This document shows, piece after piece, positions 5,910-63,489 of a stretch of DNA of 64,000 nt; the first letter of the stretch is position 1; each line of letters opens with the position of its first letter. The stretch lies in IMG/VR virus record IMGVR_UViG_3300027983_002383; one strand, 5' to 3'. The position numbers and the translations under genes are program-made. The notes below the pieces were generated by a model that saw nothing but the letters and a program-made list of their open reading frames with translations, did not search any database and had not been told where the DNA came from. The DNA comes from a virus.

Positions 5910-6285
5910 AACAATCGTTAATGATAAAGGAGATACACTGGTATTGATGAATTTAGAAGATGCTAAGTTTATCCTTAGTGACTTGTTAGAATGTGAAATC
6001 ACCGATAGTCTTTTAAATGTATATATAGAAAGGGATAGTCTTTATCAGAGTAAAATTACTTTAAAAGATGAGATAATTGATAAGTTAAATTTACAAAACA
6101 CTAATTGTGAAAGTGTGGTTAATAATTTAAAAACTATTATTGATAACAAGGATAGTGTAATTACTTTAAAAGATGATACTATTAAACAACAAAAAAAAGA
6201 GATTAGAAAACAAAAGTTTTTTAAATTTTTAGGTTTAGCGGGGTCAGTAATATTACCCATTATAACTTTATTAATATTGATATAG
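5827..6285 (+). CDS. signal peptide + coiled coil + C-terminal TM, spanin-like partner
   Basis: Hydrophobic N-terminus, coiled coil, C-terminal FLGLAGSVILPIITLLILI; 83-nt overlap with upstream gene. Confidence 0.4.
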   Translation: MKFILMLLLWTLIVSPSISQNISKGEVKTIVNDKGDTLVLMNLEDAKFILSDLLECEITDSLLNVYIERDSLYQSKITLKDEIIDKLNLQNTNCESVVNNLKTIIDNKDSVITLKDDTIKQQKKEIRKQKFFKFLGLAGSVILPIITLLILI

Positions 6286-15042: not shown

Positions 15043-16056
15043 ATGGGTAAAGAAGGAAACAACGATGATATTATGGACTTTATCTTAAACGATGATAAAG
15101 AAACATATGATAATGGATTATCTCACCCAAGTGTTGAATTTGAAGAGGGTGAAAGAAAAGAAGTTGATAAGATTTTAGAGGAGAAGATAATTAGTTATCA
15201 TTGTTGTGAAAGATTCTATGGTAATGAAAAATTGGTTTGTGATACGATACGAAAGTTAGGTAGTTGGTTAGGTGACTACAAAGGTTTAAATATGAAAGAT
15301 ATTGTTGATAAAGTATTGTCTGACGTGTTAGTATGTGAAGATATGAATAACAAATATCAACAACCATTGGAGTACCTTTATAAAACTGGGAAGGTTGAGG
15401 ATATAATTAAAAAAACTGACGGTACATATTATACAAAAAAACTTACCAACTGTTGTTTGGTTAAAGATGATAACGGTGAGTGGGACTATGTAAATAAATT
15501 AAATACCAACTACAATGACTTAGCTGAGTTATTAACCACTTTATTTTTAAAGGGTGGTAAGATTGAAGAATTATCAAAGATGAATTCGGCGGAAATAAAA
15601 ATATACCTTACTAACATTAGAAAGGGTAATGTATTATTAAAATTATTTATGAAGTATTTTACGGTGGACGAATATTCAGACTTCACCTATAATACAAAAA
15701 GTAATACTATAACGGGTGACTATGTTGAGGACTTAACTAAACAGATGTTGGAGAAGGAAGGTTACACAACGTTATATGAAGGCGGAAACGGTGACTTTAT
15801 TGATATGAGGTATGGTATTGATTTAATTGTGGAGAAAGATGGTGATATAAGTCTTGTACAGGTTAAGAGTAGAGCTACAACAGCCAAATATTCTATCAGT
15901 AAGGAATCTTATAGATATATTGATATCTTCGCTGGTGAGTCACCTGACGGTAATGGTATTACAATGTACCATAGAAATGATGGGTTTAATGAAAGATTTA
16001 TCGGTAAAGAGGTTTTAAATTCTAATATGGAATATCTTAAGAAAAGATATATGTAA
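15043..16056 (+). CDS. protein with C-terminal PD-(D/E)xK (Mrr-like) nuclease domain
   Basis: GDYVE...GIDLIVEKDGDISLVQVKS. Confidence 0.5.
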   Translation: MGKEGNNDDIMDFILNDDKETYDNGLSHPSVEFEEGERKEVDKILEEKIISYHCCERFYGNEKLVCDTIRKLGSWLGDYKGLNMKDIVDKVLSDVLVCEDMNNKYQQPLEYLYKTGKVEDIIKKTDGTYYTKKLTNCCLVKDDNGEWDYVNKLNTNYNDLAELLTTLFLKGGKIEELSKMNSAEIKIYLTNIRKGNVLLKLFMKYFTVDEYSDFTYNTKSNTITGDYVEDLTKQMLEKEGYTTLYEGGNGDFIDMRYGIDLIVEKDGDISLVQVKSRATTAKYSISKESYRYIDIFAGESPDGNGITMYHRNDGFNERFIGKEVLNSNMEYLKKRYM

Positions 16057-16319: not shown

Positions 16320-16961
16320 ATGGGTTGTGATGTACATATGTTTGTTGAAAAGTATAATAATAATAGTGGAGAATGGTCACCGATTGGTAAGGTTCTTCCT
16401 GATATGGTTGCTATAGATAAGATTGTAAAATTTATGACCCACCATTTAGGTACTACACATAAAGAAGGTAAAGAACTGATTTTTAAATTCTTAAAAGGTG
16501 TAAAACCAACAACCAAATTCGAAGACTATGTTTTAAATATATTTTTACCTGAAGAAGTCCCTATGGAAGATGATGGATATAACTGGTGGGACAATGAAGG
16601 TAAATTATCATACCCATTTACCAGAGAACCATATAGTGGTAGAAACTACAATTTATTTGGTGCTTTGGCTAATGTGAGGAACTATACTATGGAAAAGGTT
16701 GCTGAATGGGAAAGAGGGTTGCCTGATGATGTTTCAGACGATATATGTACATTGAGTGATGAATGGGGTATTGATGGTCATTCCCACAACCATTTATATA
16801 TGGATGAGTTAGTTAATAGTAAGTATTATAAAATGACAGAAGATGAGTTAAATGAGTTAGGGTTAGGTACTCACTTTTTTAATGATACAGTGAATAATAT
16901 ATTAGATTTTGTTGATGCTGACTCTAAAGATATTAGAATAGTTTTTTGGTTTGATAATTAA
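16320..16961 (+). CDS. conserved phage hypothetical protein
   Basis: MGCDVH..VE, RNY.LFGALANVR, HSH, RIVFWFDN pattern typical of a phage family. Confidence 0.7.
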   Translation: MGCDVHMFVEKYNNNSGEWSPIGKVLPDMVAIDKIVKFMTHHLGTTHKEGKELIFKFLKGVKPTTKFEDYVLNIFLPEEVPMEDDGYNWWDNEGKLSYPFTREPYSGRNYNLFGALANVRNYTMEKVAEWERGLPDDVSDDICTLSDEWGIDGHSHNHLYMDELVNSKYYKMTEDELNELGLGTHFFNDTVNNILDFVDADSKDIRIVFWFDN

Positions 16962-17113
16962 TGATTATGAAAAAATACGATCAACATAAAGTTAAAAGAG
17001 GTGTCATTCGAAAGGATAAAATCGATGATGGTTTCTTTGATGGTAGGTTCGTTTCTAGGAGTGAAACCCCTAAAAATATCTATTCAAGGACGATTAAACA
17101 CAAAAAAAAGTAA
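16961..17113 (+). CDS. ArfA-like alternative ribosome-rescue factor candidate (50 aa, not in ORF track)
   Basis: MIMKKYDQHKVKRGVIRKDKIDDGFFDGRFVSRSETPKNIYSRTIKHKKK; D..F..R.E..K...Y.R..KH pattern as in E. coli ArfA. Confidence 0.55.
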   Translation: MIMKKYDQHKVKRGVIRKDKIDDGFFDGRFVSRSETPKNIYSRTIKHKKK

Positions 17114-17130
17114 AAAAGATTTAAATAAAT

Positions 17131-17161
17131 TTGACTTTTAAGTAAAAAGTTATTATATTTG
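17131..17161 (+). promoter_or_regulatory. hybrid promoter
   Basis: TTGACT-17-TATATT overlapping TATATTTG, upstream of DUF2828 gene. Confidence 0.65.
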
Positions 17162-17199
17162 TAATTGTAATCGTAATTAACTAAAAGACAACTTAAGAA

Positions 17200-18621
17200 A
17201 TGGATACTTCACAAACAGATATGGTAAAAACAGATGAAAAGGTAACTCTAACCGACAACGGTATGGTTACAAACCCAACAACGTTGAACAGTTGTGTGGA
17301 TCTTTTCTTTTCCATAGGTGCTATGAGAGGTAAGTCTAAAGATAAAGTTATTTCGTTATTTAACGAAGCTTACGAAGAAAACCCATTAGTTGCGTCTAAA
17401 GTTTTGTTTTGGACTCGAGATGTTAGAAGTGGGGCTGGAGAGAGACAAATCTTTAGAGATATATTATCTCACTTAGTTACTACATCACCACAAACAGTTA
17501 GAAAAAACATTGGACTGATTCCTGAATTTGGAAGATGGGACGATGTATTAGTGTTGATTGGAACAGAATTAGAGGACGATGCGTTCACACTAATTAAAAC
17601 TGCGTTAATCAATGAATCTAAGATGTGTTCAAAATGGATGTCAAGAAAAGGTGATGTGTCTAACAAACTTAGAAAACTCTTTAAGATGACACCTAAAGAA
17701 TATAGAAAGATGTTGGTTAACTTAACTAATGTTGTAGAATCTAAGATGTGTTCTAATAAATGGGAGGATATTGACTATTCGAAACTACCTTCTTTAGCTT
17801 CATCTAGATATCAAAAATCATTTGTAAAAAATGATACTGAAAGATATGAGGAATATAAGAAAGCATTAGTAGATGGAACTGCGAAAGTTAATGCTGGTGC
17901 AGTTTACCCATACGATATTATTAAAAGTATAAATAATGGTGGTGACAAAGTTGTTTCTCAGAAACAATGGGAGTCTCTTCCCAATTGGATGGAAAATTCA
18001 TCTGAATTAATACTACCCGTTGTGGATGTATCAGGATCTATGTGTTGTCCAGCTGGTGGTAACGATAACCTTAGTTGTATGGACGTTGCAATCTCATTAG
18101 GTATGTACATATCAGAAAGAAACGAAGGTAACTTCAAAGACTCTTTTATTACCTTCTCTAATACCCCACAACTACAATACTTAACTGGTGGACTTAGTGA
18201 AAGACTAGAACAACTTAGGAGAGCTGATTGGGGTATGAGTACTGATTTAGAAGCTGTTTTTAATTTGATTTTAAATCAAGCTAAAACATTCGACATCCCA
18301 CAGGATAAGATGCCAACTAAGATAATGATTTTATCAGATATGCAGTTTAATGAAGCAACACGTAGAGGTGATATAGGAGCTAATTCTATGATTGATACAA
18401 TGTATGAGGAAGCTGGATATAAAAAACCAGATATTGTATACTGGAATCTAAACTCCACTGGAGCTAATTTCCCAGTAGAATTTAATAAAAATGGTACCGC
18501 ATTGGTATCAGGGTTCAGTCCATCCATATTGAAATCAATTTTGGGCGGAAAGAATATGACACCAGAATCCATATTGATGGATACTGTTAATGATGAAAGA
18601 TATAGTGTAATAACTATATAA
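17200..18621 (+). CDS. DUF2828 family protein (TROVE/Ro-like helical region + vWA domain)
   Basis: TDNG...NPTT.NSCVDLFF, RDVRSGAGER, GRWDD, KW..RK, MIDAS-like DVSGSM, TFS, ILSDMQF, YWNL, VSGFSP. Confidence 0.88.
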   Translation: MDTSQTDMVKTDEKVTLTDNGMVTNPTTLNSCVDLFFSIGAMRGKSKDKVISLFNEAYEENPLVASKVLFWTRDVRSGAGERQIFRDILSHLVTTSPQTVRKNIGLIPEFGRWDDVLVLIGTELEDDAFTLIKTALINESKMCSKWMSRKGDVSNKLRKLFKMTPKEYRKMLVNLTNVVESKMCSNKWEDIDYSKLPSLASSRYQKSFVKNDTERYEEYKKALVDGTAKVNAGAVYPYDIIKSINNGGDKVVSQKQWESLPNWMENSSELILPVVDVSGSMCCPAGGNDNLSCMDVAISLGMYISERNEGNFKDSFITFSNTPQLQYLTGGLSERLEQLRRADWGMSTDLEAVFNLILNQAKTFDIPQDKMPTKIMILSDMQFNEATRRGDIGANSMIDTMYEEAGYKKPDIVYWNLNSTGANFPVEFNKNGTALVSGFSPSILKSILGGKNMTPESILMDTVNDERYSVITI

Positions 18622-24911: not shown

Positions 24912-24943
24912 TTTGTTTAATTAGATTATTATGCGTATATTTG
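24912..24943 (+). promoter_or_regulatory. Bacteroidota-type promoter
   Basis: TTTG-20-TATATTTG. Confidence 0.75.
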
Positions 24944-33457: not shown

Positions 33458-33489
33458 TTTGTTTTATTGAAATAAATTATATATATTTG
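33458..33489 (+). promoter_or_regulatory. Bacteroidota-type promoter
   Basis: TTTG-20-TATATTTG. Confidence 0.75.
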
Positions 33490-35947: not shown

Positions 35948-35978
35948 TTTGGTAATTAAGTTATTTTTCGTATATTTG
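35948..35978 (+). promoter_or_regulatory. Bacteroidota-type promoter
   Basis: TTTG-19-TATATTTG. Confidence 0.75.
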
Positions 35979-42422: not shown

Positions 42423-42454
42423 TTTGTTTTAATGGGAAATTATTCATATATTTG
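42423..42454 (+). promoter_or_regulatory. Bacteroidota-type promoter
   Basis: TTTG-20-TATATTTG. Confidence 0.75.
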
Positions 42455-63457: not shown

Positions 63458-63489
63458 TTTGGTTTATCCAATAAAATAGCTTATATTTG
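63458..63489 (+). promoter_or_regulatory. Bacteroidota-type promoter
   Basis: TTTG-20-TATATTTG. Confidence 0.7.

Follow-up and report, generated by a model that had tools for sequence, protein, structure and literature searches.

Does a 50-codon open reading frame in the DNA of an uncultured phage encode a ribosome rescue factor of the ArfA type? The question arose from an earlier note on the stretch of 64,000 nucleotides that was analysed here as a whole (hereafter the window, 64 kb), in which a small basic ORF resembling Escherichia coli ArfA had been pointed out. The window displayed about 30% G+C and carried nearly all of its genes on one strand. Matches to phage families within it were few (an SbcC-like protein, endolysin domains and phrog_850); it was treated as belonging to an uncultured phage because of these matches and because relatives of the small gene were encoded on IMG/VR viral contigs. 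Near-identical contigs (L109 and L110) stem from freshwater samples. The features needed at this point were the following:

16320..16961, + strand: upstream gene of 213 aa with a PHROG match to phrog_10141, function unassigned
16959..16963, + strand: TAATG overlap between the upstream stop and the start of the small ORF, read from the sequence
16961..17113, + strand: small ArfA-like basic ORF of 50 aa, running from ATG at 16961 to TAA at 17111-17113
17111..17113, + strand: ordinary TAA stop close to where active ArfA ends, read from the sequence

The small ORF was present exactly as it had been described. By direct count its 50-aa product contained 16 K/R against 6 D/E residues, which corresponds to a net charge of about +10. 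An alternative in-frame ATG at position 16967 would give a 48-aa form starting with MKKYDQH, and this start is also the N-terminus of most relatives. In the TAATG arrangement, the stop codon of the 213-aa gene and the start of the small ORF have one base in common. This layout is that of translationally coupled genes, and judging from it the two genes may be coupled; they probably form part of one transcription unit. The 213-aa gene was absent beside the 54 related viral copies of the small gene.

The relatives of the ORF indicated whether it is a real gene. A word-indexed search yielded 16 close homologues with 63-94% identity, all 49-57 aa long except one, for which the gene call included a long N-terminal extension. 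The close family displayed 21 invariant columns, namely Y6, D7, Q8, H9, K12, R17, G24-R33, E35, Y41, R43 and K46. When all of 1.84 billion cluster representatives were searched with a profile, 68 matched at E<=1e-3, with lengths of 43-90 aa in nearly all cases; three long matches (P0148, P0168 and P0200) proved to be unrelated repeat proteins and were excluded. The wider relatives amounted to about 65 small proteins beyond the 16 close ones and displayed the core R..Q.EQGFFDGRFV.R.E.SKK.Y.RK.KHK. Two profiles were used, A1 for the close family and A2 for the wider family (64 sequences), and related loci were collected with the A1 alignment. The close subfamily provided 20 distinct coding sequences, for which median pS was 0.79 and median pN 0.155. 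Differences at codon positions one, two and three numbered 1735, 797 and 3735, respectively, the third position being dominant. The small ORF is a genuine gene under purifying selection.

Taken alone, the window protein displayed no Pfam match even at E<=10, ArfA (PF03889) and DUF7230 (PF23876) included; it had no match in NCBIfam or PHROGs at the same threshold and nothing in PDB by phmmer, and the single sequence retrieved nothing among GenBank phages by tblastn or megablast. None of the close relatives (16-17 proteins) matched Pfam ArfA or DUF7230, whose gathering cut-offs are 25.5 and 27 bits, respectively. Since the single sequence lacked a Pfam ArfA match, the window protein is referred to here as ArfA-like and not as a curated member of ArfA.

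Similarity to ArfA was found at the level of profiles. Against 177,635 distinct PDB sequences, the best match of A1 was E. coli ArfA (5u4i_w, E 0.26), and the best four matches of A2 were all ArfA chains (E 0.0064, 0.0096, 0.011 and 0.013), followed by a fifth match at E 0.082. An ArfA alignment was built from E. coli arfA, 29 non-redundant enteric homologues and seven phage homologues (tblastn). When A2 was compared to it by hhalign, a probability of 95.6% was obtained (P 1.2e-8, score 37.7, 41 columns). The scores of 100 column shuffles of the ArfA alignment reached a maximum of 16.2 with a median of 8.1, and reversed-alignment controls scored 7.8 and 7.4; as shuffled and reversed controls lay so far below the real score, composition is not the explanation of the similarity. 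Profile similarity, on which the earlier note had made its proposal depend, was in this way both detected and controlled. The hhalign probability was 92.3% for A1 against the same alignment, 92.8% without the bridge protein of phage J2-1 (described below) and 96.3% against phage ArfA alone, and it dropped to 77.7% (A2) and 14% (A1) against the low-diversity enteric ArfA alone. Few of the neighbours retrieved by a language-model search bore a name, and an ArfA cluster was one of them (score 0.88), which served as a lead only.

The bridge protein is encoded by Pseudoalteromonas phage J2-1 (L003:2983-3138), is 51 aa long and is annotated as ArfA in GenBank. It cleared both curated cut-offs, with 41.3 bits for Pfam ArfA and 28.6 bits for DUF7230. 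It is devoid of the GKG triplet, so that its spacing from E to Y equals that of the window protein. The DUF7230 model spans the F..R.E..K..Y.RK.KHK tail, which is common to the window family; the window protein itself did not match it, though 16 of its 64 relatives in A2 did so weakly (best E 5.7e-5). Only one of these 64 members matched Pfam ArfA (E 0.049). The closest bacterial relative (L064) reached 26.0 bits with DUF7230 against the cut-off of 27. Pfam ArfA and DUF7230 thus overlap, and DUF7230 is probably an ArfA-related family. No paper mentioning DUF7230 was found in a literature search, and the link between ArfA and DUF7230 appears to be previously unrecorded.

The same data bear on the idea that the gene encodes an unrelated small basic protein, binding DNA or RNA or acting in packaging, whose likeness to ArfA would be convergent and driven by composition. 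The protein is indeed short, K/R-rich and largely non-globular, its single sequence lacks a significant family match, and fold searches came back empty. Its AF2 model (pLDDT 81.8) displayed a helix at residues 8-22 and an extended tail; Foldseek found no match for it in PDB, and VIA-align gave Z<=2.2 at most among 48,161 chains. Both results are uninformative in either direction, as would be expected of a non-globular peptide. Convergence is contradicted by the composition-preserving controls, which attained at most 16.2 against 37.7, by the rank of ArfA above all PDB proteins, many basic ribosomal ones included, and by the J2-1 protein clearing both curated Pfam models. A nucleic-acid binder of this kind was considered quite improbable, and homology to ArfA, at profile level only and on a basic peptide of 40 residues, very probable.

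ArfA (YhdL; PF03889; PDB 5H5U, 5MDV and 5U4I) is about 50 residues long in its active form, as is the window protein, and both display an N-terminal helix, an extended mid-region and a K/R-rich tail ending in a KH motif. The spacing D..F..R.E..K...Y.R..KH, which the earlier note had read as conserved apart from a three-residue gap, was recovered independently by HMMER and by hhalign against E. coli ArfA. The N-terminal match fared less evenly: pairing YDQH with YQH of ArfA, as had been proposed, requires a shift of three residues, but hhalign paired KRGVIRKD with TKGQIKDN without any gap. In the hhalign alignment, residues G14, I16, I21, D27, F30 and R33 of the window protein were identical to G9, I11, I16, D22, F25 and R28 of ArfA, and E35, K38, Y41, R43, K46 and H47 to E30, K33, Y39, R41, K44 and H45. 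Most of these columns were invariant in the window family. The tail motif Y.RK.KH was present, with Y41, R43, K46 and H47 invariant or nearly so, and is only predicted to bind the mRNA channel.

In ribosome-bound ArfA, the A site is occupied by His21-Glu30, Trp319 of RF2 is bound by a hydrophobic patch made up of Leu19, Leu24 and Phe25, Ala18 packs on Ile11, and Pro23 touches A1492/A1493 (PMC5378476). The window family kept the equivalents of F25 and I11 together with the D..F..R.E frame. Positions L19, P23 and L24 of ArfA, which contact RF2 or the decoding centre, were replaced by G, G and R; L19 paired with G24 of the window protein and L24 with R29, and F25/F26 of the window protein are adjacent to these positions. 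A18 paired with D23, a position occupied by A in most A1 members. RF2 of one carrier genome (G004; L117:1486-2565, - strand) was 360 aa long, was encoded without a frameshift and displayed SPF, GGQ and a Trp within EWGSQIRNY, which we take to be the counterpart of Trp319 of E. coli RF2.

This pattern of kept and lost contacts raises the question of whether the peptide rescues ribosomes or merely binds them. A protein with an ArfA-type tail might occupy the vacant mRNA channel or the A site and block or redirect some process at this place; for example, it might keep tmRNA-SmpB or ArfB off stalled ribosomes or halt host translation, all without recruiting a release factor. Such a role would suit a family in which the tail and the mid-region are best conserved with ArfA, the contacts made by L19, P23 and L24 are not conserved and the N-terminal region is variable across the wider family. 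However, the alignment with ArfA also spans the N-terminal helix region, including the equivalents of I11, I16 and F25, and we judge binding without rescue to be unlikely.

The reading we favour, with modest confidence and from sequence comparison, is that the small gene encodes a divergent phage homologue of ArfA that would act as a constitutive, release-factor-dependent rescue factor. When a ribosome has reached the 3' end of a truncated mRNA and stalled there, the C-terminal tail, which is rich in K/R (SETPKNIYSRTIKHKKK), would thread into the empty mRNA channel and the invariant mid-region GFFDGRFVSRSE would sit in the A site. The mid-region and the N-terminal helix would together keep a class-I release factor of the host in the form that is active, and the peptidyl-tRNA would then be hydrolysed without a stop codon. 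By analogy this factor would be RF2, RF1 being also possible. The peptide would be produced constitutively with its operon, outside the repression exerted by tmRNA tagging. Ribosome binding, release-factor recruitment and rescue are all steps that we infer by analogy with ArfA. That the peptide might serve against mRNA- or tRNA-cleaving defences, as the earlier note had suggested, is speculation.

The 3' end of the gene is relevant to the constitutive part of this proposal. As the earlier note had it, the gene ends naturally near the active length, with TAA after codon 50 and no degradation tail. Folding of positions 17040-17199 was no better than that of shuffled sequences (z 0.05) and gave no 3' hairpin, and no terminator-like site was detected after the small ORF. 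There was no sign of non-stop mRNA control or of tmRNA feedback, as these observations suggest. Since the stop is normal and a hairpin is missing, the peptide would be made whenever its operon is transcribed, and tmRNA tagging would not repress it as it does bacterial ArfA.

Downstream of the small gene, a spacer separates it from a Ro-like gene:

17130..17161, + strand: promoter-like element TTTG-N20-TATATTTG, also readable as TTGACT-17-TATATT (motif scan)
17200..18621, + strand: Ro60/TROVE-vWA-like gene, DUF2828 + DUF7788, phrog_850 (Pfam and PHROG matches)
17130-17161, 24912-24943, 33458-33489, 35948-35978, 42423-42454 and 63458-63489, + strand: TTTG-N17-21-TATATTTG motifs

The two genes had been noted as immediate neighbours. 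The Ro-like gene does adjoin, starting 86 nt downstream at 17200, but this order is shared by the closest relatives alone (94% and about 80% identity). Because these relatives keep their Ro-like neighbour even where the upstream gene differs, the small protein could work specifically with the Ro60-like protein and its RNAs, for instance as an RNP cofactor, rather than as a general ribosome factor. Against this, a Ro-like gene was found within 6 kb at none of the 54 other viral loci and none of the 29 bacterial loci (tblastn, E<=1e-5), the promoter-like element lies between the two genes, and the family moves alone into tRNA arrays and bacterial chromosomes; a dedicated partnership was therefore rated as very improbable. 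A functional link to Ro-like genes as a general feature was rejected as well, with a Ro-like neighbour at 0 of 83 related loci.

As the promoter-like element suggests, the Ro-like gene may be driven by its own promoter in the spacer. All six TTTG-N17-21-TATATTTG motifs of the window displayed the same TATATTTG box and lay on the + strand; their enrichment in the window was not significant (six found against 3.4 expected). This type of motif resembles the -33/-7 promoter type of Bacteroidetes. Two genes upstream of the small ORF, a 337-aa protein (15043-16056) displayed weak C-terminal matches to Mrr_cat, UPF0102 and PD-(D/E)xK endonuclease-like domains (E about 0.015).

Relatives of the small gene were encoded at 54 IMG/VR viral loci, none of which displayed the neighbours found in the window. 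Their surroundings were often rich in tRNA genes. At 28 of the 54 loci tRNA genes occurred within 6 kb on either side, and 23 had five or more of them within this distance, up to 22. Fifteen loci were flanked by tRNAs on both sides and 14 had the nearest tRNA within 1 kb, some relatives starting only 22-53 nt after a tRNA-Leu gene. These loci belong partly to related phages and are not all independent, and several distinct arrangements occurred. A location in tRNA arrays suggests support of translation rather than its inhibition, which speaks against a peptide that would bind ribosomes without rescuing them. DUF5872, an SPFH/Band 7 protein and an RNase H-like protein also recurred beside the viral copies and were uninformative on function.

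Relatives within large arrays, with 10-22 tRNAs in the 6 kb on either side, were seen at loci L015, L017, L025, L027, L031-L034, L049-L052 and L057. In most of them the match lay at about 6001-6147, often 22-300 nt after genes for tRNA-Cys and tRNA-Leu(tag). The tRNA array was a recurrent site for the ArfA-like gene, and in Salmonella phage Arash the canonical ArfA homologue was located inside such an array as well.

The 29 bacterial loci were almost all from Bacteroidota MAGs, for example of Crocinitomicaceae, other Flavobacteriales and Cryomorphaceae. The genes around them on large bacterial contigs were of an ordinary chromosomal kind or typical of defence islands (thioredoxin/AhpC, a T9SS-tailed protein, type I HsdR, and WYL with a reverse transcriptase). 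Two chromosomal copies adjoined defence-type genes: at L078:2892-6206 the neighbours were a reverse transcriptase and a WYL/WCX regulator, and at L072:4160-7030 the HsdR subunit of a type I restriction system. Carriage was sporadic, with six of 401 sampled Bacteroidota genomes and six of 151 genomes of one family, figures by which a phylum-wide housekeeping gene was ruled out.

Pfam-level ArfA was detected in none of the five carrier genomes examined for it. Only two genes with an RF-1 domain (RF1 and RF2) were found in all six carriers of the family sample and in four of the five carriers examined first (G004, G456, G461, G476, G524 and G551; also G001, G002 and G005). The exception was G003, which displayed a 146-aa ArfB-like ORF. 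Having only two RF-1-domain genes, these carriers lacked an ArfB-like gene; three or more such genes were present in 71 of the 151 genomes of the same family (about 47%). The absence of an ArfB-like gene from carriers gave a one-sided hypergeometric P of about 0.02, a value uncorrected for phylogeny, genome size and MAG completeness. A 2024 survey of 1,956 genomes of the FCB group, to which Bacteroidota belong, reported arfA in none and arfB in 1,426 of them (PMC11633108). The gene counts are consistent with a peptide that would stand in for ArfB in a back-up rescue role. Chromosomal copies in ArfB-less genomes fit such a beneficial back-up, and this again argues against binding without rescue.

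ArfA has been reported only from beta- and gammaproteobacteria (PMC8012679, PMC11633108), whereas the window family occurs in phages and Bacteroidota and not in proteobacteria. The window protein further differs from ArfA by lacking the GKG triplet, and its gene by ending with an ordinary stop and having neither an RNase III hairpin nor an internal terminator. BrfA of Bacillus subtilis and ArfT of Francisella are likewise small and basic; these peptides recognise an mRNA channel that is empty and bring in release factors, as is proposed here. BrfA also has a KH motif (PMC8012679); unlike the window gene it is made from a non-stop mRNA, and no BrfA chain was among the PDB sequence matches of profiles A1 and A2 at E<=10. 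ArfT is a member of another family, of the repeat type (PMC6514570).

Phage ArfA genes as such are already annotated and published. Gene product 10 of Citromicrobium phage RXM is one (PMC8953757), and gp30 of pelagiphage HTVC027P carries PF03889 and is highly expressed (PMC12753301); homologues were also found in Pseudoalteromonas phage J2-1, Pseudomonas phage pf16 and Salmonella phage Arash. Like the window protein, the known phage homologues are phage-borne and short (42-60 aa) and end at natural stops. Unlike the window family, they pass Pfam ArfA (22-72 bits). The phages that encode them infect proteobacteria, whereas the likely hosts of the phages with the window family are Bacteroidota. 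The invariant GFFDGRF core distinguishes the window family from them.

These comparisons tie ArfA to a widespread family of small proteins in phages and Bacteroidota and to the uncharacterised DUF7230. Phages carry naturally truncated versions of ArfA, often among tRNA genes, and these would escape tmRNA control. The family with the GFFDGRF core may then be an unrecognised branch of an ArfA superfamily, overlapping DUF7230, that would provide constitutive rescue to Bacteroidota phages and to a few seemingly ArfB-less Bacteroidota and would belong, with the tRNA arrays, to a translation toolkit by which ribosomes stay at work while host nucleases cut mRNAs or tRNAs during infection; we put this broader proposal forward tentatively, with somewhat more doubt than confidence. 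If rescue activity is confirmed, release-factor-dependent rescue has a wider range than described, a function is found for many unannotated phage ORFs of less than 60 aa, and the supply of ribosome rescue by a phage during infection becomes directly testable.

Two further observations were made in the tRNA arrays. ARAGORN reported tRNA-like genes of 86-96 nt in phage arrays, to which it assigned no identity and an 'anticodon' of two bases (ta or tt), at the following places:

L012:3940-4035, odd tRNA-like gene (ARAGORN)
L013:5855-5950, odd tRNA-like gene (ARAGORN)
L014:8343-8438, odd tRNA-like gene (ARAGORN)
L017:11375-11467, odd tRNA-like gene (ARAGORN)
L018:5705-5797, odd tRNA-like gene (ARAGORN)
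L025:11798-11883, odd tRNA-like gene (ARAGORN)

Such genes might encode tRNAs with an intron or tRNAs that are unusual in another way. In Salmonella phage Arash, gp99c (L005:2917-3141) is annotated as 'ribosomal protein L2' and is an ArfA homologue; read from an internal Met, it scores 69.6 bits with PF03889. Four clustered tRNA genes directly precede it, and its annotated start is probably too far upstream.
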